Shown piece by piece: positions 3,831 through 16,384 of a DNA stretch of 41,936 nucleotides. Source of the stretch: an uncultured Acidobacteriota bacterium. GTDB lineage: Bacteria; Acidobacteriota; UBA6911. Where the stretch lies: NCBI GenBank assembly GCA_963827655.1, contig CAWHCF010000028.1, positions 1 to 41,936 of the forward strand. The letters are read 5' to 3'. Within the stretch, counting starts at the first letter, position 1; each line of letters begins with the position of its first letter. The notes under the pieces were generated by a model. It searched no databases. It was not told the origin of the DNA and saw only the letters and a list, made by a program, of their open reading frames with translations. A program made the position numbers and the translations under genes.

Positions 3831-5213
3831 GTGCTTCCTCACCAGGCGTGCGGAGTGTATGCTACGCCTGTGTCACGCCATGTTGCCCCGATTAGCTCGC
3901 CAACAACGGGGTTACTTCTTGGACTCATCGTCACCCTGGCGGCAGTGGTGGCGTATTCGTGGTACATCACACGGCAGATCTCCGGGCTGAGAGAGCTGCA
4001 GACCGACCTGGTCGAACGCAACCGCAAGGACTCCCTTCAGCTGCTCCGGATCCAGAACGACCTCAACTCCCTGGCGCTGGCGATGCGGGACATGCTGGAT
4101 ACCGAGGGTCCGTACCCGCTGACTGCATGGTCGGCCCAGTTCCGGCGCATTCGAAGCGATCTCAAGGACGCCCTGGAGACAGAAGCGGAAGTGGCCGTGG
4201 CTCACCGGACGCCGGAGCAGAGGAAGTACCTGGAGAATTCCGTGACGCAGCTTTGGGACGCCGTGGACCGTATGTTCGCGCTTGCGCGCGATGGGAAGGA
4301 GAGCGACGCGCGCGCCCAGATCCGGCTTTCGCTGCAAGCGAGACAGGCGGCGCTGAGCTCAGCTGTGGCGCGGCTTCTGGTCGAGAACAATGAAAGCGAG
4401 CAGCAGGCAGTGCAACGCATCGCCGGGATCTACGACAGCGTACAACGACAGGTCTACTGGTTTCTGACTGCGGCGCTCGTGGCGATCGTGCTCACCAGCC
4501 TCTACCTCATCCGCTCGAACCGCCGCTTGTTTGCGCAACTCTCAGCGCTGTCGGAGCAGCGCAGCGAATTGGCGCAGAAGCTCATCGCGACTCAGGAGTC
4601 CACGCTTCGGCATATCTCACGCGAGCTGCACGACCAGTTCGGTCAGGTCCTGACGGCGATAGGTTCAATGCTGGCGCGTGCCGGGAACCACACAGCCGAA
4701 GGTTCGCCGCTGCGCGCGGAACTGCGCGAGGTGTCGGAGATCGCGCAAGACGCGCTCAACAATGTCCGCAGCTTGTCCCAGGCGCTCCATCCCGCCCTGC
4801 TCGACGAGGCGGGCCTGGAGGGCACGCTTGACTGGTACCTGCGCACGGTGGAACGGCAGACCGGTCTCGTCATTGTTTACCAGAAGTCCGGGACGCCGTT
4901 TTCCGTGGACGGCGACAAGGGAATTCATGTATATCGCGTGCTGCAGGAGGCGCTGAACAACGTCGTTCGACATTCCGGAGCCAAGCAGGCCTGGGTCCGG
5001 TTGGGTTTTCAGACAGACTCCCTGGAGCTGGACGTGGAGGACCACGGTCGGGGGTTTGAACATCAGCGGGCACAGCAGGGGATCGGCGTTGTAGCCATGC
5101 GAGAACGGGCCGAGCTGCTGGGCGGGAGTATCGAGTTCCTGCGCCCGCCTGAAGGGGGGACGCGCGTGCTCCTCAGAGTGCCGCGAGAACGAGTGGATTC
5201 AAATGGCCGGTGA
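3831..5213 (+). CDS. Membrane sensor histidine kinase (HisKA_3, NarX-like); start uncertain
   Basis: Two TM segments, ISRELHDQFGQ H-box, QEALNNVVRHS N-box, DHGRGF, GIGVVAMRERA. Confidence 0.95.
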   Translation: MLPHQACGVYATPVSRHVAPISSPTTGLLLGLIVTLAAVVAYSWYITRQISGLRELQTDLVERNRKDSLQLLRIQNDLNSLALAMRDMLDTEGPYPLTAWSAQFRRIRSDLKDALETEAEVAVAHRTPEQRKYLENSVTQLWDAVDRMFALARDGKESDARAQIRLSLQARQAALSSAVARLLVENNESEQQAVQRIAGIYDSVQRQVYWFLTAALVAIVLTSLYLIRSNRRLFAQLSALSEQRSELAQKLIATQESTLRHISRELHDQFGQVLTAIGSMLARAGNHTAEGSPLRAELREVSEIAQDALNNVRSLSQALHPALLDEAGLEGTLDWYLRTVERQTGLVIVYQKSGTPFSVDGDKGIHVYRVLQEALNNVVRHSGAKQAWVRLGFQTDSLELDVEDHGRGFEHQRAQQGIGVVAMRERAELLGGSIEFLRPPEGGTRVLLRVPRERVDSNGR

Positions 5214-5832
5214 GATCACGGTACTGCTCGTGGATGACCACAGCCTCGTCCGCCTTGGCTTCCGCCGCCTCCTCGAAGATGATCCCGAAATCGCCGTGGT
5301 CGGAGAAGCGGGCAACGGAGAAGAAGCGATCCGGCTCGCCGGTGAGCTGAAGCCGATGGTGATCGTGATGGATTGCGCGCTGCCCGGTGTTAGCGGACTC
5401 GCGGCGACGCGGCGGATCCTGGAGTCCTCACCCGAGGTCGCGGTCTTGATGTTGAGTATGCATTCGGAGGACACGCTGGTGCGTCAGGCGCTCGGAGCCG
5501 GCGCGCGCGGCTACGTGCTCAAGAGCGCCGTGAATCTCGACCTGGTCGCGGCCGTGAAGCGCGCGGCCGCCGGAGAAACCGTACTCGACTCGCAGTTGTC
5601 GCTCTCTCCGGCGTTGAAAGGCGAGCGCAGCGCCGGACTGACACCCCGCGAGATCGAAATCCTGCAACTTATCGTCGAGGGGAAGTCGAACAAGGAGATT
5701 GCGGCGCAGCTCGATCTCAGCGTGAACACTGTGGCGGTGCATCGCGCCAACATCATGGACAGGCTGGGGATCCACAAGACCGCAGAGCTGGTCGTCTACG
5801 CCATCCGCAATGGCCTCGTGAACCTTCCGTGA
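5203..5832 (+). CDS. NarL/LuxR-family response regulator
   Basis: REC domain (LLVDDH, VMD, GYVLK) plus LuxR HTH (LTPREIEILQLIVEGKSNKEIA); overlaps the kinase stop. Confidence 0.96.
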   Translation: MAGEITVLLVDDHSLVRLGFRRLLEDDPEIAVVGEAGNGEEAIRLAGELKPMVIVMDCALPGVSGLAATRRILESSPEVAVLMLSMHSEDTLVRQALGAGARGYVLKSAVNLDLVAAVKRAAAGETVLDSQLSLSPALKGERSAGLTPREIEILQLIVEGKSNKEIAAQLDLSVNTVAVHRANIMDRLGIHKTAELVVYAIRNGLVNLP

Positions 5833-7523
5833 ACCGCTGGTACCTCCTGTCGGTCCTGCTCGGGGCCGGAATCGCAGCTTCGGTGGTGGCGGCCGCATCT
5901 GGAGATCCTCAGCACACCCCGGGTTTCCGGTTGGTCAATGTAACCTTCGCTGCGGGGATTGAGTTTCGTCACAACAGCGGCGCTTACGGCGGCAAGCTCC
6001 TGCCCGAGACACTCGGCTCGGGTTGCGCGTTCCTGGACTACGATCGCGACGGCTGGCAGGACATCCTGCTGGTCAACGCAATCGACTGGCAAGGCCACAA
6101 GCGGCAGCGGACGACGCTCCGGCTCTACCGAAACCTGCGCAACGGCACGTTCGCTGACGTGACGCGCGCGGCCCGCGTCGATGCGGAGATCTATGGCATG
6201 GGCGCCGCCGTTGGCGACTATGACAATGACGGATTTCCGGACATTCTAGTCACCTGCGTCGGGCAGAACCGGCTACTGCGCAATACAGGCAAGGGCACAT
6301 TCGTCGACGCGACGGGGGTAAGCGGCCTCGCCGGGCGGACGGCCTTCAGCACTTCCGCGCTGTGGTTCGATTTCGATCGCGACGGTTGGCTGGATCTTTT
6401 CGTGTGCAATTACGTGCGCTGGTCCCCGGAACACGACGTGTTCTGCAGCCTGGACGGAGTGCATAAGTCGTATTGCACGCCCGAAGCCTATCGCGGCGAT
6501 ACATGCTGGCTCTTCCGCAACCGGCGCAATGGAACGTTCGAGGACGTCACCGCGTCCAGCGAGGTCTTCGACACAAGTTCGAAATCGCTCGGCGTCGCCC
6601 AGCTCGACTACGATCGGGACGGCTGGCCGGACCTGGTAGTGGCCAACGACACGCAGCCCAACAAGCTCTATCTGAATCTACGCAACGGAACTTTCAGGGA
6701 GGTCGCGCTGGAGGCTGGAATTGCTTTCAACAGCGACGGGAAGGCTCGAGCCGGCATGGGCGTCGACGTAGCAGACTTCGAGAACTCCGGGAAGCCGGGC
6801 ATCGCCATCACCAATTTTGACAACGAAATGATCGGGTTGTACCGCGCCGCCGGCGACGGGCGGTACGAAGACATGGCGATGCAGGCCGGAATCGGCCTTG
6901 CGTCAAAGAACACGCTGGGGTTCGGATGCGGTTTTCTCGACGCGGATCTCGACGGATTGCTGGACCTCGCCGTCGCAAATGGTCACATCGAAGAGACAGT
7001 GCGCAACATACGCGGCAACGTGGGGTACGCGCAGCCGCCCCAGCTTTTTCTGAACGCCGGCAACGGCCGGTTTCGTGACATCGCTTCCGAACTGGGAGGC
7101 GGCTTCGATCAGCCGAAGGTCGGTCGCGGTCTGGCGTATGCAGACTTCGATCTGGACGGCGATCTCGATCTCCTGATGACCACAAACAACGGGCCTGCGT
7201 TCCTCTTCCGCAACGATCAGCTCGGTGGGAACCGGAGCATACGTTTTCGACTGGTGGGAACGAGATCGAACCGCGACGCCGTCGGGGCCATCGTGCGGAT
7301 CTATTACGATGGTTCGCTCCAATCGCGCACGGTGAAGAGCGGGTCGAGCTATCTCTCCCAGTCAGAACTGCCAGTGACGTTTGGACTCGGCCGGCGCGAC
7401 CGCATCGACCGCATCGTAATCGAATGGCCGAGCGGACGTAACGAAGAATTCAAGGATCTTGCGCCCGGCAGGACCTACGAATGCGTGGAAGGAAAGACCA
7501 TCACGCCATCCGCGCGCCCCTAG
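5829..7523 (+). CDS. CRTAC1-family FG-GAP repeat protein with ASPIC/UnbV C-terminal domain
   Basis: Signal peptide, repeated DYDxDGxxD motifs, SNRDAVGA, SGSSYLSQS...FGLG, IEWPSG. Confidence 0.93.
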   Translation: MNRWYLLSVLLGAGIAASVVAAASGDPQHTPGFRLVNVTFAAGIEFRHNSGAYGGKLLPETLGSGCAFLDYDRDGWQDILLVNAIDWQGHKRQRTTLRLYRNLRNGTFADVTRAARVDAEIYGMGAAVGDYDNDGFPDILVTCVGQNRLLRNTGKGTFVDATGVSGLAGRTAFSTSALWFDFDRDGWLDLFVCNYVRWSPEHDVFCSLDGVHKSYCTPEAYRGDTCWLFRNRRNGTFEDVTASSEVFDTSSKSLGVAQLDYDRDGWPDLVVANDTQPNKLYLNLRNGTFREVALEAGIAFNSDGKARAGMGVDVADFENSGKPGIAITNFDNEMIGLYRAAGDGRYEDMAMQAGIGLASKNTLGFGCGFLDADLDGLLDLAVANGHIEETVRNIRGNVGYAQPPQLFLNAGNGRFRDIASELGGGFDQPKVGRGLAYADFDLDGDLDLLMTTNNGPAFLFRNDQLGGNRSIRFRLVGTRSNRDAVGAIVRIYYDGSLQSRTVKSGSSYLSQSELPVTFGLGRRDRIDRIVIEWPSGRNEEFKDLAPGRTYECVEGKTITPSARP

Positions 7524-7754
7524 TACTTTTGCATTATTGCCATCACGCCGTTGATCCACCTAATCTCTCCCTACATGGCGAACGTCTTAGCCATTCAGTT
7601 TTGAAGCGGACGCAATTGACTCCAGGGACCAAAGTCCGCAGACGCTACACGGGGGCGCTGGTGAATTTCGGTCTCACCGATCATTCCAATACTCGCGGAG
7701 TTTGCGACTGCCAAACGGGAGGGGACCCAAAACCGGTTAGTAAGGAGTGACCCG

Positions 7755-8894
7755 ATGAGGTTTGAGACGCTTTGGGGAAAAATAAGCCAGGCGAGCCGAA
7801 ACTCGGACAGGGGGCAAGTCTTCGCCCGGCTCGTGGCGGCGGCTGCACTGGCCTTTGGAGGCCTGGGCATTCTCACCCCACAATCTCTGGCACAGGGGTG
7901 AGTGGCCGCTCGACAGAGTGCGCCCGTGATTGGCGCCCTATGCGGCTCGGCTGTGCCGACCTTTGTCCAGCCAAGAACAGACGCGTGGTATCACGGTGTG
8001 GAGCTGACGACTGCTTACCGCTACCAGTCTTCCTTCCGTCACTTCGTCGGCACGGTCGAGCAGAAACAGCGGGAGCTAGACGGCACCCAGATCGTCAATA
8101 ACTACCACCTGTTTGATGTTGCGGTCGCCTACCCATTGACCCGCCGAATAGCCCTTACGGGCAGTTTGCCGATCCTGCTGGCCGAGCGCAATCAGCTCTA
8201 TGCCCCGCGGGGCATCTACAACGTGAATGGAATTGGCGACATGACCTTGGGGACGAGAACCTGGCTATTCCGTCCACCGACGGAGTCCGGCGCCAACATC
8301 GCGCTCGGATTCAGCCTGAAGTTTCCTACCGGCAAGTACAACGCCACGGATCTCGCGGTCAGCAGCACGGGTCAAACCATCCTCGCCACGGCGGATCAGT
8401 CGATCCAGGCAGGGGATGGCGGTTTCGGATTTGTGCTCGACGCCCAGGCGTATCAACCGATCTTCGGCCGGAGCATGCTCTACTTCTCGGGGACTTATCT
8501 CTTCAATCCGCGCAATACCAACGGCGTGAGTACGTTTCGGAGAAGGCGCTACGAGGAGGTGATGTCCGTAGCGGATCAGTACCTGTTTCGAGGCGGTATC
8601 TCGCGTCCGGTTCCGAAGATCCGGGGTCTGGTCGCAGGCTTCGGGGGACGGATTGAAGGTGTTCCCGTGCGCGACGCCTTTGGACGGAGTGATGGGTTCC
8701 GCAGACCCGGCTACGCGATCTCACTAGACCCTGGCGTGATGTACGTTATAGGTCAGAACCTCTTCTCGCTCAACATTCCTTTTGCGGTCGAGCGAAACCG
8801 CAGACGAAGCACAACTGACATTCTGAACGGTGTGCATGGCGACGCGGCCTTCGCTGATTACGCCCTCGTGATGAGCTATACCAGACGTTTCTAA
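7755..8894 (+). CDS. Putative outer-membrane beta-barrel protein with in-frame TGA at 7899-7901 (candidate selenoprotein)
   Basis: AAGGAG RBS, ATG 7755, 48 open codons forming a signal peptide (...TPQSLA/QG), TGA, then the listed 330-aa ORF in the same frame; C-terminal Phe. Confidence 0.75.
7904..7947 (+). promoter_or_regulatory. Candidate bacterial SECIS stem-loop
   Basis: GCCGC 7905-09 pairs with GCGGC 7942-46; GCGCC 7920-24 with GGCGC 7932-36; apical loop CGUGAUU begins 23 nt after the UGA. Confidence 0.5.
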
Positions 8895-9810: not shown

Positions 9811-12800
9811 ATGGGAGTCTGGTGGAGTCGACGGAGCGGGCGCTTCGTCATGGTTTTGTTTGGAGCCTTAATATCGAACCTTGTCGCTGGCGCGCAGACT
9901 AACAGCGCGACGCTCAGCGGTACAGTCAGGGACGCCACGGGCGCCGTTGTGCCGGGCGTGGCTATTCGGGTTTCGAGCACGGCGACCGGGTTGCAACGGC
10001 AAACGACGACCGGTAGCGATGGTCTGTTCACACTGACGCTTCTGCCGCCGGGCAGATATTCGCTCCAGGCTGAGCGGCAAGGCTTCTCGCTCGTAGAGGT
10101 AAACGGCATTGAATTACCGGTTGCCGGACAGGTCTCGCACGACATTATTCTGCAGGTCGGAGGCGTTACTGAAACAGTCGACGTCGTCGCTGTGCCGCTT
10201 CTGCAGTCGGACACGAGCGCGCTCGCCGACGTTGTCAATAACCGGCAGGTCGAGCTGCTGCCGATCAACGGTCGCGATTTCCGCCGTCTGACGGTCTTGC
10301 TTCCGGGCGCGGCGCCTCGTTCTCAGCGAGGCTCGCTCGGATCGTTCACAGTCAATGGCCAGCGAGAGAAGGCCAACATCTTCCTCATAGATGGCGTGGA
10401 TAATAACGATTCGTTCCGCAATCAGCCTTCTCTCAATCAGGGCGGCGTGACCGGAGCGCCGGCGACTCTGCTTCCGGTTGATGCAGTCGGTGAATTCACG
10501 CTGCAAACACAGGGCGCGGCTGAGTACGGGCGCAATTCGGGCGCCGTGGTGAATCTCATTCTCAAGAGCGGCACAAACCACTTCCACGGCACGGCCTATG
10601 AATTTCTTCGCAACGATAACTTCGATGCGCGCAACTTCTTCGAACGCGGGAAAAACGAATTTCGAAATAACAATTTCGGCGGGGTTCTGGGCGGCCCGAT
10701 CGTCAGGAATCGAACGTTTTTCTTCGGCGGTTTCGAAAGTCAGCGCGAGTTTGTCTTTTCTCCATCGGTCGTACGCGTACCGGACGCCGCCGATCTTGCA
10801 GCAGCGCGCACGGCCAACCAGGCGGCGGGACTCCAGGAGAACGAGCTCAGCACCAGCATCCTGCAATTCTTTCCGCAGCCCAACCTGGCGGCCACAACGG
10901 GCAACAATTATTCGTTCGCGGCTCCAAATACCAACAACAGCGACAACTTCCTGGCAACCATCGAGCATCGCTTCGACGACCAGTTTAGTCTCAGCGGGCG
11001 GTACATTTTCGGCGATGGCAATCAGGTCTTCCCGCTGACTACCGGCAACGGTTCGCCGCTGCCCGCATACCAGACTGTGGTTCCGACGCGCGTCCAGGTC
11101 TTCGGGCTGAGCCTGTCTCAGTTCCTGACCTCACAGCTCGTTAACGAAACTCGGGCAGGTTACAACCGTTTCGTGCAGACCTTCACACCGCTGGATGCGG
11201 ATTTCGATCCGGCCAGCATTGGTCTCATTACCGGAGCAAAATCGCTCCCCACGGTCACAATCACCGGCTTCGTGCCGCTCGGTGCACCAACCAATGTGCC
11301 GCGCGGACGCGTGAGCAGTGCCTATCAGGCCGTCGACAACCTGACCTGGGCGCGCCGGTCCCATGTTTTCAAAATCGGCGGTGAATATCGCCGGGCTATC
11401 GTCAACTCCTACAACGACCAGCTGGCGCGGGGCCGGTTGAACTTCGACAGTCTGGCCGATTTCCTTGCGGGCAGAGTCGCACCCGCCGGAACCGCCGTCC
11501 TGCGAGGCGCGACCCGGCGCGATACGTTCACGAACAACTTCGGTTTGTTTGTGCAGGACGATTGGAAACTGACATCCCGGGTCACGCTGAATCTGGGACT
11601 TCGCTATGAGTATCTGGGCGTGTTCCGCGAGGAAGGAGATCGGCTCTCCAACTTCATTCCAGCACGCGGGCTCGTACGGGTAGGTGAGCCGGGCCTGGAT
11701 CGTCTGTACGAGCCGGATTACAACAATCTTGCCCCCCGGTTCGGTTTCGCGTACGACCTGACAGGGCAAAGTCGAACGGTTCTGCGCGGCGCATACGGTC
11801 TGTATTACGACACGCCATCTCAGGACTACTTCCTCTTGCAGGGCTTCCAGAACGGGGGTCCGGGAAGCCCGGCACTGAATCCCTTGCCGGGCCTTGGAGT
11901 ATTCAATCTAACCTTTCCGGCGGGAGCGACGATTCCTTATGGACCAAACGTACCGATCTTCGGCAGCGCGAGCGGGTCGCTGCCGACCACGAGCATCTCG
12001 ATCTTTGCGGTCGACCCGAATCTTCGAACTCCTTACGTGCACAATTACAATCTGAACCTGCAGCACGAAGTGGCGCACGGAACCGTTTTGCAGGTGTCTT
12101 ATGTCGGTTCCCATGGCGTGAAGCTTTATCGCGTGCGCGATCTTAATCAGGCGACTGCCGGTCCGGCGTCCACACGCCAGCAGCGGCGCCCCTTCGGCAC
12201 ACAGTTCCCGGATTTCTCCTTCATCAACTATCTCGAAACGTCCGCCAACTCAAGTTACAACGCATTACAAACGACCATCAGGCAGCGTCTGGGGGGCCTC
12301 GATCTTTACGGAACTTACAGCTGGTCGAAGTCTATCGACGATGCCTCAAATGGAATTTATTCGGGCACTCGCGGCGTCGCGTATCCGCAGGACACCAACA
12401 ATCTGCGTGCGGAGCGCGCCCTGTCCAGCTTCGATCTGCGGCACCGAGTCACGGTCAACGCTACCTACGAACTCCGTTTTCTACCGAATCGACTCCGCTC
12501 CTGGCCGAAGCGGCTCACGGATGGATGGCAGGTTAGCGGCATTTATACAGGTCAGAGCGGGTTGCCGATCACACCCTTCCTGAGCCTGGACATCAGCGGC
12601 ACTGGCGAACTCAACGATCGGCCCGACCTTGTGGGCGACCCGAACGCCGGACCGCGCCGTCCCAACGAGTGGTTCAACAAAGCGGCGTTTGCCCAGCCGG
12701 TTCCCGGCACATTTGGAAATTCAGCCCGTAACGTGATCATCGGTCCGACTCTGAGCGCGGTCGACTTCTCGGTGACCAAACTGTTGAAAGTGGCGGAGCA

Positions 12801-12990
12801 TGCTTCGTTACAATTTCGCGCCGAAGTTTTCAACGCCTTCAACCGCGCGAATTTCAGTCTGCCGAACGTTGATTTCAACGCTGCAGCCTTTGGCACAATC
12901 AGCGAAACTCCGGACGTCACGGCCGGAAATCCACGGCTCGGCGAAGGCGGCCCGCGCGTGGTTCAATTCGGACTGAAGGTTATTTTCTAG
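9811..12990 (+). CDS. TonB-dependent receptor (Oar-type, N-terminal carboxypeptidase-regulatory-like domain)
   Basis: LSGTVRDATGAVVPG, LPINGRDF, KSGTNHFHG, QDDWK, FRAEVFNAFN, terminal QFGLKVIF; AAGGAG RBS. Confidence 0.96.
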   Translation: MGVWWSRRSGRFVMVLFGALISNLVAGAQTNSATLSGTVRDATGAVVPGVAIRVSSTATGLQRQTTTGSDGLFTLTLLPPGRYSLQAERQGFSLVEVNGIELPVAGQVSHDIILQVGGVTETVDVVAVPLLQSDTSALADVVNNRQVELLPINGRDFRRLTVLLPGAAPRSQRGSLGSFTVNGQREKANIFLIDGVDNNDSFRNQPSLNQGGVTGAPATLLPVDAVGEFTLQTQGAAEYGRNSGAVVNLILKSGTNHFHGTAYEFLRNDNFDARNFFERGKNEFRNNNFGGVLGGPIVRNRTFFFGGFESQREFVFSPSVVRVPDAADLAAARTANQAAGLQENELSTSILQFFPQPNLAATTGNNYSFAAPNTNNSDNFLATIEHRFDDQFSLSGRYIFGDGNQVFPLTTGNGSPLPAYQTVVPTRVQVFGLSLSQFLTSQLVNETRAGYNRFVQTFTPLDADFDPASIGLITGAKSLPTVTITGFVPLGAPTNVPRGRVSSAYQAVDNLTWARRSHVFKIGGEYRRAIVNSYNDQLARGRLNFDSLADFLAGRVAPAGTAVLRGATRRDTFTNNFGLFVQDDWKLTSRVTLNLGLRYEYLGVFREEGDRLSNFIPARGLVRVGEPGLDRLYEPDYNNLAPRFGFAYDLTGQSRTVLRGAYGLYYDTPSQDYFLLQGFQNGGPGSPALNPLPGLGVFNLTFPAGATIPYGPNVPIFGSASGSLPTTSISIFAVDPNLRTPYVHNYNLNLQHEVAHGTVLQVSYVGSHGVKLYRVRDLNQATAGPASTRQQRRPFGTQFPDFSFINYLETSANSSYNALQTTIRQRLGGLDLYGTYSWSKSIDDASNGIYSGTRGVAYPQDTNNLRAERALSSFDLRHRVTVNATYELRFLPNRLRSWPKRLTDGWQVSGIYTGQSGLPITPFLSLDISGTGELNDRPDLVGDPNAGPRRPNEWFNKAAFAQPVPGTFGNSARNVIIGPTLSAVDFSVTKLLKVAEHASLQFRAEVFNAFNRANFSLPNVDFNAAAFGTISETPDVTAGNPRLGEGGPRVVQFGLKVIF

Positions 12991-13968: not shown

Positions 13969-15018
13969 TCAGTATCCTTCGCGTCCACCGGCGGCGACAG
14001 CCTTGCCGCGGTGAATCCGGAAGAGAACGACGAAGTAAAGGATAGCGAGTGGAAAGCCAACGACCCACCACGCCAGGGCGATCTCGAGGCTCCGAATCGA
14101 CACACTCGAGTTGTACGCGTCCAGCGAGCGCGCGCCATCGTCGATGGCTCGCAGCATGACCGGGAACACGCAGGCAGCCGTCGCGGCGAGCAGGCCTGCG
14201 AGAAACGCGCACGAGCCAAGAAACGCGCGGAGATCCCGGCGTCCGCGCAACCCAAGACCGACTGAGATCAAGCCGGCCACCGCTACCAGCACGGCCAGCC
14301 ATGCCACTGGGCGGCGCGGCAACGCGGCAAACATCTCTCCGTTCACGCGCCACGTCGCCAGCGTCAGCAGCGGCCAGCACACCGCAGCGGCGCCGTACAG
14401 CCAGATGGCGGCCGTGCGGCTGCGCGTCTGCACCACGCCTTCCGATTTCCACGCCAGAAACGTCGCGCCGTGTCCACCGATGGCCAGCAGCCCGAAGATG
14501 CCGGCGACGACCGTGTACCAGTCGAGGATGCCGACCGGCGGTCTCGCGCTGAAATCCGTGAAGAACGGCAGCGAGAACCAGCCATCCTGGCCGATCGGGA
14601 GACCGCGCAGTAGATTGCCGAGCGCGACGCCGAACAGCACGGGCAGCACCGCGCTCGCGGCGCAAAACAGGAAGTCCCAGGCCGCCCGCCAGAGCGGATG
14701 CTCGATGTGACTCCGGAACTCGATCGAAATGCCGCGCACGATCAGCGTCCAGAGCACGAGGAAGATCGCGAAGTAGAATCCGGACAGCCCGGATGCAAGG
14801 ACGGGCGGGAACGCGACGAACAGCGCGCCTCCCGTCGCGAGGAGCCACACTTCATTGGCATCCCAATAGGGGCCGATGCTGGCGAGCACCTGCCGGCGCT
14901 CCGCGTCGGTTCGCGCCACGAACAGATGCAGCAAGCCTGCGCCAAAATCAAATCCGTCGAGCACGACGTATGCAGTGAGCATCAGGGCGGCGATCCCGAA
15001 CCACAACTCAACCACCAC
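13969..15018 (-). CDS. cydB: Cytochrome bd ubiquinol oxidase subunit II
   Basis: YVVLDGFDFGAG, IGPYWDANEVWL, RGISIEFR; overlaps cydA. Confidence 0.97.
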   Translation of the reverse strand: MVVELWFGIAALMLTAYVVLDGFDFGAGLLHLFVARTDAERRQVLASIGPYWDANEVWLLATGGALFVAFPPVLASGLSGFYFAIFLVLWTLIVRGISIEFRSHIEHPLWRAAWDFLFCAASAVLPVLFGVALGNLLRGLPIGQDGWFSLPFFTDFSARPPVGILDWYTVVAGIFGLLAIGGHGATFLAWKSEGVVQTRSRTAAIWLYGAAAVCWPLLTLATWRVNGEMFAALPRRPVAWLAVLVAVAGLISVGLGLRGRRDLRAFLGSCAFLAGLLAATAACVFPVMLRAIDDGARSLDAYNSSVSIRSLEIALAWWVVGFPLAILYFVVLFRIHRGKAVAAGGREGY

Positions 15019-16384
15019 TCACCTCCCCCGTCCGGTGCGGCAGCGCCTCCGGACCGTGACCATTCTGCGGAGCCGGGCCATGCGCGATCTCGCGGCCAAT
15101 CAGGAACAGGAACAGGACGCCGAGCACCAAATACAGTCCCGAGAAGCCCATCAGCGTGAACAGGACGGTCCCGGAGTGCACCATGGGGCTGGCGCCGTCT
15201 CTGGTGCGCATCAATCCGTACACGATCCAGGGCTGGCGTCCCAGCTCCGCCGTCATCCATCCAGCCGTGTTCGCGATGTACGGAAAGGGGAATGCGAGCA
15301 TCAGCACCCACAGCATGCGCCGGCTGCGTACGAGCGCGCCGCGCCACTCGAGAGCCGCCGCGGCAGCCATCGTCACGATGAACATCGTCCCGAGTCCGGC
15401 CATCACGTGAAACGCGTAGTAGAGCAGCTCGATGTTGTCGGGCCACGTGTCCTCGGGAAACCCGTCCAGACCTGCGACGTTCGCGTGAAAGGTGCCGTAC
15501 GCGAGAAAGCTGAGGAAGCCAGGTACGACGATTGGATTGTCCAACCGTCTCTCCTTCACGTTCGGCTGCCCGATGAGGACGATGCCGGCCCAGGTCCCGC
15601 TTTCGAATCGTCCCTCCATCGCTGCGAGGCTCACGGGTTGGTGCCTCGCGATCAGCTTGGCCTGCCAATCGCCCGTCGGGAACGCAACGAGGATGCTCGA
15701 CAGCAGTCCGGCCGCCACACCCACGCGAAGGAACCGCCGGGCCTGCTCCCGATGCGCGTCCTGCAACGCGTAGTAGGCACCGACGGCCGCCATCACGAAC
15801 GACGCCGTCACGACCGCCGCGACCATATTGTGCGCGTATTGCGCGAGCGCCCAGGGGTTCAGCACGAATGCCCAGAAGTCGGCGAGGTACAACGTGCCGT
15901 CCGGGCCCACGCCGTAACCGGCGGGACGCTGCATGAACGCGTTCGTGCAGATGATGAAATAGCCGGATAGCCAGCTCCCCACAAAGAGCGCGAGGCTCGC
16001 CAGGAAGTGTGCCCGGCGTCCGATACGGCGCTCGCCGAAGACGAGAAGCCCGAGAAAGGCCGATTCGAGGAAAAACGCGAACAGCCCTTCCATCGCGAGC
16101 GTCTGGCCGACCACGCCACCGGCGTACTTCGAGAACGCCGACCAGTTCGTCCCGAACTGGAACTCCATCGGGATGCCGGTGACGACGCCGACGGCGAAGT
16201 TGATGCCGAAGATCCGGATCCAGAAGCGCGCCGCGTCATCCCACGCGCTGTGGCCCGTGCGCAGTCCAGCCACCTTCAGCACGACGATGAGCAGCGCCAG
16301 CCCCATCGTGAGCTGGGGAAACAGATAGTGGTAGACGATGGTGAAGGCGAACTGCAGGCGGTGCCAAAGCAGGGGGTCGGACAT
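15008..16384 (-). CDS. cydA: Cytochrome bd ubiquinol oxidase subunit I
   Basis: RLQFAFTIVYHYLFP, GVVTGIPMEFQFGTNW, LAAMEG, GWMTAELGRQPW. Confidence 0.97.
   Translation of the reverse strand: MSDPLLWHRLQFAFTIVYHYLFPQLTMGLALLIVVLKVAGLRTGHSAWDDAARFWIRIFGINFAVGVVTGIPMEFQFGTNWSAFSKYAGGVVGQTLAMEGLFAFFLESAFLGLLVFGERRIGRRAHFLASLALFVGSWLSGYFIICTNAFMQRPAGYGVGPDGTLYLADFWAFVLNPWALAQYAHNMVAAVVTASFVMAAVGAYYALQDAHREQARRFLRVGVAAGLLSSILVAFPTGDWQAKLIARHQPVSLAAMEGRFESGTWAGIVLIGQPNVKERRLDNPIVVPGFLSFLAYGTFHANVAGLDGFPEDTWPDNIELLYYAFHVMAGLGTMFIVTMAAAAALEWRGALVRSRRMLWVLMLAFPFPYIANTAGWMTAELGRQPWIVYGLMRTRDGASPMVHSGTVLFTLMGFSGLYLVLGVLFLFLIGREIAHGPAPQNGHGPEALPHRTGEVSGG

Follow-up and report, generated by a model that had tools for sequence, protein, structure and literature searches.

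The stretch of DNA considered here (the window, 41,936 nucleotides (nt) from an uncultured Acidobacteriota bacterium) carries, at positions 7755-8894, what is very probably one gene for an exported outer-membrane barrel selenoprotein, in which selenocysteine (Sec) is the third residue of the mature protein. A first-pass annotation, made from the letters alone, had proposed that an in-frame UGA is read as selenocysteine in an exported barrel, and the content of the UGA column in homologs, a covarying hairpin behind it, the Sec machinery of the genome, and strain data all favour this proposal. Our analysis establishes a conserved TGA/Cys column, the covariation of the hairpin, co-occurrence with the Sec machinery, a barrel fold, and purifying selection. 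The support for Sec is comparative in kind and appears strong.

All features of the gene lie on the + strand. A Shine-Dalgarno-like AAGGAG (7742-7747), seen by direct reading, stands 7 nt 5' of an ATG at 7755-7757, and this ATG opens the frame of the called open reading frame (ORF) 7902-8894, as the first-pass annotation had stated accurately to the base. Translation table 11 splits the frame at the TGA (7899-7901) into two ORFs, one of 48 aa (7755-7901) and one of 330 aa (7902-8894) that starts with a GTG (7902-7904); the stop codon, again by direct reading, is a TAA at 8892-8894. When TGA is translated as U, a protein of 379 residues is obtained with one TGA only, at residue 49 (U49), which confirms the earlier placing of a single TGA at mature residue +3. 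The start codon and a predicted signal peptide of 46 residues (7755-7892; M1-A46), delimited by translation and comparison with homologs, end in S-L-A before Gln47, and the mature N-terminal motif Q-G-U-V-A-A-R follows (7893-7913), with Q47, G48, U49, and R53 invariant in an 11-sequence alignment. In other words, the read-through peptide runs ...TPQSLAQG-U-VAARQSAPVIGALC. The residues at -1 and -3 of the predicted cleavage site are small in the sequences of 80 genome loci, and cleavage after Ala46 by signal peptidase I seems likely. The beta-barrel body, whose loop motifs are conserved and whose last residue is Phe, occupies 8001-8891, and the four motifs by which the first-pass annotation had characterized the protein (SFRHFxG, DQSIQxGDGG, DGFRRPGY, and HGDAAFADY) are all present in the read-through product.

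Under the mechanism that we propose, translation would start at ATG 7755, and the UGA at 7899-7901 would be decoded as selenocysteine by SelB and tRNA-Sec, with a hairpin at 7918-7938 acting as a bacterial selenocysteine insertion sequence (SECIS). After export of the 379-residue precursor, signal peptidase I would remove the residues up to Ala46, leaving a mature outer-membrane beta-barrel of the FapF/COG4313 (PF13557) type that carries Gln-Gly-Sec on a tail of ~35 residues before the first strand.

Evidence for selenocysteine in a barrel family

Homologs were collected by six-frame searches that read through stops, and the column in question was checked on DNA. A one-genome-per-species scan gave at least 599 pattern matches, of which at least 557 were relatives; the 91 loci examined here are the best 80 of these relatives (the genome loci) and 11 matches in related genomes. 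Among 41 related genomes, nine had a match, and all 11 matches, with identities down to 35-39%, showed a signal peptide followed by (A/S/G)-Q-G-TGA-(V/I/Q)-x-x-R. In the 80 genome loci, the column holds TGA in 66 and Cys (TGC or TGT) in 14. There are thus 77 Sec-form loci (66 + 11) with TGA in the same column, and 14 Cys-form loci, all of which belong to the genome loci. The first-pass annotation had suggested looking for Cys/TGA pairs in this column and for a conserved TGA in relatives, and both were found, the TGA being kept across the Acidobacteriota and beyond. The motif QG-[U/C]-x-x-x-[R/H] is present in 79 of the 80 genome loci, and L089 has NG-C. The annotation's statement that homologs begin QGCVA(I/A)R was also sound: QG-C-VAIR occurs in four loci (L091, L098, L100, and L109), carried by Flaviramulus, Catalinimonas, Spirosoma, and a metagenome-assembled genome (MAG) labelled Limnohabitans, and other Cys variants occur in 10 more loci.

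The majority of carriers belong to the Acidobacteriota (Bryobacteraceae, Solibacteraceae, Blastocatellia, Thermoanaerobaculia, Vicinamibacterales, Holophagales, and Pyrinomonadaceae), and there are carrier records under the labels Planctomycetota, Verrucomicrobiota, Bacteroidota, and Lysobacterales, among others. When the phylum was sampled evenly, the family was found in 39 of 401 genomes with 44 matches, of which 29 contain one in-frame TGA, 12 span the column without a stop, and three stop short of it; one of these three is a paralog in the window's own genome, where the TGA had already been seen. With at least 557 species-level genomes, the family may be among the commoner selenoproteins of soil bacteria. 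The paralog just mentioned is a second barrel gene (G000:C35, locus L030:1501-2583, - strand) of a divergent subfamily with QG-U-VPARFM..., and it shares the position of the TGA and has, in the same register, a hairpin that differs in sequence and loop. Two other loci contain adjacent copies: in L051, a Sec form stands beside a Cys-form copy (CQG-C-VRSR) as tandem paralogs, and in L086, two Sec-form copies are adjacent. In L057 and L082, the MAGs whose contigs carry the barrel genes bear the labels Heliomicrobium (Firmicutes) and Limnocylindria (Chloroflexota); because such barrels are unexpected in those groups, these contigs may be mis-binned.

In protein databases, the family appears mostly in shortened form. 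Of 8000 candidates scored, 4264 were homologs at E <= 0.001, and all of the best 120, which were inspected, are truncated, with neither the signal peptide nor the QG-[C/U] motif in any of them. Their starts fall at the codon right after the TGA column in 58 cases and eight codons later in 29 cases, positions that are best read as the footprint of gene callers at a conserved in-frame stop. Because there is no NCBIfam model for the family, annotation pipelines can be expected to go on miscalling its genes.

In a tree built with the first 30 residues left out, Cys forms are nested within Sec clades, including the clade of the window, and at least six switches between Sec and Cys are required, four of them forced by well-supported branches. 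Such interleaving is usual in genuine selenoprotein families, and these natural Sec/Cys pairs offer a way to ask what Sec does beyond Cys outside enzymes. One Cys form (TGT), L088:1208-2119, is the sister of the Sec form L064; it still encodes the SECIS-type peptide and has a partly decayed hairpin, and the replacement of Sec by Cys here looks recent. The L088 ORF stops early, at 304 residues.

The hairpin in the window (7918-7938; stem 7918-7924/7932-7938, loop 7925-7931 with CGUGAUU) also encodes the peptide A-P-V-I-G-A. A GC-rich hairpin beginning ~18 nt past the TGA is found in every one of the 77 Sec forms. In their ungapped alignment, the helix columns 20-26/34-40 are paired in 90.6% of cases, compared with 18.6-51.5% when the 3' partners are slid, and compensatory changes are seen in six of the seven helix pairs (28 cells changed on both sides); none of 500 shuffles reached the observed values. 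RNAalifold independently paired columns 21-26/34-39, with compensatory changes in five of six pairs. The commonest covariation, G-C to A-U at columns 22/38, changes the encoded residues from Ala to Thr and from Ala to Val. Because residues on both arms are altered, the constraint lies on the RNA and not on the peptide. The two subfamilies, with the peptides A-P-V-I/L-G and M-x-L-S-L-G, have the hairpin in the same register, and the apical loop of the covarying hairpin contains GU. The mean folding energy of nt 16-45 is -11.7 kcal/mol in the 77 Sec forms versus -4.5 in the 14 Cys forms (Mann-Whitney p = 2.4e-6), and most Cys forms have neither the hairpin nor the peptide that it encodes, the exceptions being L088 and L082.

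The barrel nature of the product was examined by profile and structure. PF13557 (Phenol_MetA_deg) is the sole Pfam match, at 26.3-26.9 bits against a cut-off of 22, with 70 of 242 profile positions covered, and 29 of 86 family members match it at E <= 0.01. The window protein has no match in NCBIfam. An AlphaFold2 (AF2) model built from an 86-row alignment is a confident barrel, with a mean predicted local distance difference test (pLDDT) score of 90.9 and a predicted template-modelling score (pTM) of 0.88, in which the first strand begins at mature residue 37. The C-terminal Phe is invariant in the 11-sequence alignment, and the Cys forms are publicly named "Transporter" or "MetA-pathway of phenol degradation".

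Contigs from other studies allowed the gene to be compared among strains. The TGA at 7899-7901 is unchanged in contigs of three independent studies, X1 and X2 (DNA) and X15 (from an RNA library), of which X15 spans 7743-8358 and bridges the TGA. The first-pass annotation had proposed a check of base 7901 in reads, and in these assembled contigs neither TGC nor TGT was seen. X1 and X16 cover the gene only in part, and X16 leaves out the TGA. X2 and X15 represent strain variants; an in-frame insertion of 3 nt in the signal peptide is common to both, and codon 47 is changed synonymously in X15. Within the gene, there are 19 distinct substitutions, of which 14 fall on third positions of the read-through frame and are synonymous and five are non-synonymous and confined to the signal peptide and the variable linker; from codon 87 on, in the barrel body, all 11 strain substitutions are synonymous. 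The gene is thus under purifying selection within the species, and this is evidence against a decay of long standing.

In the 8.18-Mb genome, selB (380 bits), selD (384 bits), and a single tRNA-SeC are present and look intact. The genome also has fdhA (1381 bits) with one in-frame TGA and a second fdhA-like gene with a TGA, and five of its 18 AhpC/TSA matches carry one in-frame TGA. These fdhA-type and AhpC/TSA genes are located at G000:C26:166295-169291, C23:324512-325081, C23:427161-427532, C26:260302-260688, C26:235509-235883, C31:56099-56533, and C6:38860-39138, and the genome appears to be rich in selenoproteins. Across the family, selA scores above the curated cut-off in 58 of 66 Sec-form genomes versus four of 14 Cys-form genomes (Fisher p = 1.7e-5, with kin not independent). 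The first-pass annotation had pointed to the Sec machinery as a check, and this check came out only in part: selB, selD, and tRNA-Sec are present, and selA is present in a frame that is broken in the assembly.

Weighing the rival explanations

It should be mentioned that several observations weigh against a working selenoprotein gene, and a number of them concern selA. In the assembly, selA (398 bits for its middle part; G000:C23:243616-245032, locus L001) lies across three reading frames; measured against the nearest relative (G041), whose selA is intact with 473 residues, it contains insertions of 2, 1, and 1 nt. No second selA scored above the cut-off in the assembly, and no conspecific selA was found in metagenome contigs, where the best match was 77% identical. 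Three breaks in 1.4 kb exceed the frame-split rate of the other orthologs of this assembly, and no selA match was obtained in eight of the 66 Sec-form genomes, all of them MAGs of unstated completeness. As for the hairpin, the window's copy taken alone (62 nt) is no stabler than shuffled sequences (z = -0.47; 56 of 200 fold as well), its stem contains one U-C mismatch, the G-U of its loop lies at 28-29 from the U of UGA versus 23-24 in the genome's own fdhA (5 nt further), and an Rfam scan of the window gave no match. Published bacterial SECIS models allow such a UGA-to-loop spacing. Finally, the origin of the X15 contig in an RNA library does not prove transcription.

The breaks in selA may reflect an assembly error or a recent loss of selA. 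Frame splits are seen in two of 16 other orthologs of the assembly (~6,100 aa), which shows that indel errors, or other pseudogenes, do occur in it and makes an assembly error possible at selA as well; this survey was crude, with 88 ORFs taken from six 20-kb regions of the nearest relative and 9-16 of them passing as orthologs. Besides selA, two genes, at G000:C38:48971-50144 and G000:C6:284309-287093, appear divided between two frames here, their orthologs in the nearest relative being single frames. If Sec synthesis had recently been lost with selA as a pseudogene, the UGA of the window gene would terminate translation and the gene would be a relic of a true selenoprotein family. The split of selA over three frames, set against the single intact frame in the nearest relative, and the lack of a second copy above the cut-off speak for such a loss. 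Against it, selB, selD, and tRNA-Sec are intact, and at least nine TGA genes are otherwise open (two of the fdhA type, five AhpC/TSA matches, and two barrels). The conspecific strains keep the TGA and change the barrel body only synonymously, the splits in other orthologs make assembly indels plausible, and the genome is only 90% complete. We regard this relic explanation as unlikely.

Three further explanations question the decoding or the processing of the product. The TGA could be a true stop, in which case a 330-residue barrel would be made from GTG 7902 and 7755-7901 would be a small upstream ORF or non-coding. Gene callers give exactly such ORFs here and in the 120 best homologs, and GTG follows the TGA in 52 of the 77 Sec forms. 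In the remaining 25, however, the next codon is GTC, GTA, ATC, ATT, or CAG, so that a restart there is no general option. Moreover, an in-frame start that lies 18 or more codons upstream, together with a hydrophobic core, exists in all 77 Sec-form loci, giving a signal peptide that ends just before QG-TGA; a barrel needs such a peptide to get to the outer membrane. Q47 and G48, both upstream of the TGA, are invariant, and the 14 Cys forms are continuous ORFs with Cys at the TGA codon. This makes a true stop highly improbable, and we hold the same of a UGA read as a standard amino acid, whether by near-cognate decoding as Trp, Cys, or Arg or under a reassigned code. For the latter it can be said that the frame is open apart from the TGA and that the case for selenium is comparative, not chemical. 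Yet 36 of the 77 Sec-form genes end on TGA, which shows that TGA is not reassigned; a covarying hairpin at SECIS distance exists only in TGA forms, TGA forms track the presence of selA, and the alternative residue in homologs is always Cys. It is also conceivable, and in our view very unlikely, that the protein is a lipoprotein variant cut by signal peptidase II right before the Sec or Cys, which would become the lipid-modified +1 residue of a lipidated barrel. The invariant Gly at -1 and the Sec or Cys that always follows the signal peptide give a loose likeness to a lipobox. The usual lipobox has Leu at -3, though, and inspection of the sequences shows Ala, Gly, or Ser at position -3 and Gln at -2, a poor fit; many copies have a polar c-region (Pro, Arg, or His) before an Ala-x-Ala-type site ahead of the Gln, as is typical of signal peptidase I. 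The selenoprotein explanation, set beside these four, is in all likelihood the right one on the comparative evidence.

Neighbouring genes and the possible role of selenocysteine

Flanking ORFs were clustered after filtering for shadow frames over the barrel gene, and only a thioredoxin-fold neighbour then stood out, together with a vanadium-chloroperoxidase-like neighbour in four loci. The former is a CxxC-containing gene of the AhpC/TSA-Redoxin type (TlpA-like), which adjoins the barrel gene in 20 of the 91 loci (16 Sec and four Cys forms). It usually lies just downstream on the same strand (L034, L036, L037, L044, L046, L048, L049, L054, L058, L075, L094, L099, L104, and L111), often overlapping the barrel stop or standing a few bases from it, and it is found in other arrangements in L027, L052, L056, L064, L088, and L089. 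These loci span several classes and one Lysobacterales record, and a signal peptide is present in several of the thioredoxin-fold products. The genome of the window has 18 AhpC/TSA-type genes in 8.2 Mb, and from a rough estimate of gene number, such a neighbour would occur by chance in well under 1% of loci. Five weak TlpA-like matches (L070, L079, L087, L101, and L108) were rejected as shadow-frame artefacts without CxxC. The vanadium-chloroperoxidase-like (DUF6851/PAP2-type) neighbour is located at L046:3-1418, L054:2-1261, L058:2-1324, and L096:2718-4064.

In the window itself, the barrel gene is preceded on the same strand by genes for a histidine kinase, a LuxR-type response regulator, and an FG-GAP/ASPIC-UnbV protein (3831-7523) and followed by a CarboxypepD_reg and TonB-dependent-receptor-like barrel (9811-12990) and, on the - strand, by cytochrome bd oxidase subunits I and II (13969-16384). 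The kinase, regulator, FG-GAP/ASPIC, and TonB-dependent-receptor-like genes each stand beside homologs in only 0-3 of 90 loci, and we rejected them as clues to function. A tRNA scan of the window found none.

The first-pass annotation had also drawn attention to a Cys 14 residues after the TGA. This residue, Cys63 (codon 7941-7943), does exist, 14 residues past U49, but a Cys at +14 occurs in only 27 of the 77 Sec forms, so it is no conserved partner, and we rejected it as a resolving partner of Sec at the level of the family. As for what the Sec may do, metal capture or redox chemistry had been proposed, and the adjacent TlpA-like gene would lean towards redox servicing. TlpA-type reductases keep periplasmic Cys ligands reduced. 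In the mechanism outlined above, the tail would face the periplasm or enter the barrel lumen, like the N-terminal segments of the COG4313, FapF, and FadL proteins. The residue at issue, a lone Sec or in some lineages a Cys, would serve as a reactive chalcogen by which a substrate or metal is bound or gated. It would be kept reduced by a thiol:disulfide oxidoreductase of the periplasm, the TlpA-like protein whose gene adjoins the barrel gene in about a fifth of the loci.

This picture of the role has points against it. The first ~30 mature residues, Sec included, have pLDDT values of 45-50 in the AF2 model, and the position of the tail is therefore not fixed by the model. No Cys is found among the invariant or near-invariant columns of the 86-row alignment, which leaves no conserved second Cys for an intramolecular redox pair; the Sec or Cys would thus act alone or with another molecule. 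Neither the window's own locus nor 71 of the 91 loci have a TlpA-like neighbour. We can only tentatively suggest, by analogy, that the Sec or Cys is kept reduced to work as a metal or chalcogen ligand or as a gate, on a tail located in the periplasm or in the lumen. A more specific and equally speculative idea is that the lone Sec on its flexible tail works as a tethered "ball-and-chain" by which a metal, a chalcogen, or another electrophilic substrate is captured or gated inside or beneath the barrel, that a dedicated periplasmic TlpA-like reductase resets it, and that it is not the catalytic centre of an enzyme. If this idea were true, Sec would have a new class of function, in envelope transport or gating, and the supply of selenium would directly control outer-membrane permeability in abundant soil bacteria.

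Known selenoproteins and related barrels

Table 1 of a 2022 review (PMC9312934) has 87 selenoprotein families, of which one is an outer-membrane barrel, the "MtrB/PioB family", and contains no PF13557, COG4313, or FapF-like entry. According to a 2026 review (PMC13188914), the "MtrB/PioB family" has been renamed the GSU2204 family (NF041027), and the paper on deep-Sep (PMC12013277) gives a Sec-containing TonB-dependent receptor among nine new families. The first-pass annotation had remarked that bacterial selenoproteins are mostly redox enzymes and not barrels; barrel precedents do exist. Word searches confined to the main texts on deep-Sep (PMC12013277) and BSepDB (PMC13326102), the 2026 review (PMC13188914), and the Haft preprint (10.1101/2022.07.06.499078) gave nothing on the barrel family described here, and in the literature on selenoproteins with outer membrane, COG4313, FapF, or Acidobacteriota, we found no description of it as a selenoprotein. 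It is apparently an undescribed and widespread selenoprotein family, which uses a recoding mechanism that is already known and would attach Sec to a transporter scaffold in the cell envelope.

By both profile and fold, the best match is FapF, the secretion channel of functional amyloid in Pseudomonas (PDB 5O65, 5O67, and 5O68). A profile search of PDB sequences gave FapF at E 2e-9, and the top Foldseek match was FapF 5O67 (E 4.4e-12, TM 0.62/0.70), with identities of 11-14%. However, three Cys forms score only 16-20 bits against the NCBIfam equivalog NF058560, for which the cut-off is 700, and the window protein has no match. No fap-type neighbours were seen at the window locus, and we rejected an identity with FapF, given the equivalog scores and the lack of a fap operon context. 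The family is distinct within the PF13557/FapF structural class. The next Foldseek match was the COG4313 channel 4RL8 (E 5.8e-9, TM 0.61/0.74), which is Pput2725 of Pseudomonas putida F1. The COG4313/PF13557 channels resemble the family in their Pfam score, in their fold, and in having an N-terminal segment before the barrel, a segment that in 4RL8 reportedly occludes the barrel lumen. What sets the family here apart is an invariant N-terminal QG-[Sec/Cys]-x-x-x-Arg and loop motifs that are peculiar to it, and we know of no Sec in COG4313 proteins.

For the way in which such a tail could work, the FadL-type transporters offer an analogy, and only that. Their fold matches are weaker (E about 1e-6, TM 0.35-0.47), they have 14 strands and a larger hatch domain, and no Sec or Cys is present at their N-terminus. 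The N-terminal residues of FadL occupy the interior of the barrel and contribute to gating; among the titles of the matched PDB entries are an N-terminal deletion and Phe3 mutants. The systems that are closest in combining Sec with a barrel are the GSU2204/"MtrB-PioB" family and the Sec-containing TonB-dependent receptor, which are likewise predicted selenoproteins and have been described as outer-membrane barrels. Membership in the former was rejected: one Cys form (L103) scores 17.4 bits against NF041027, far below the cut-off of 350, and the window protein has no match. Both are reported from anaerobes of the Desulfobacterota type, whereas the family described here is found mainly in Acidobacteriota and would carry its Sec at mature residue 3.

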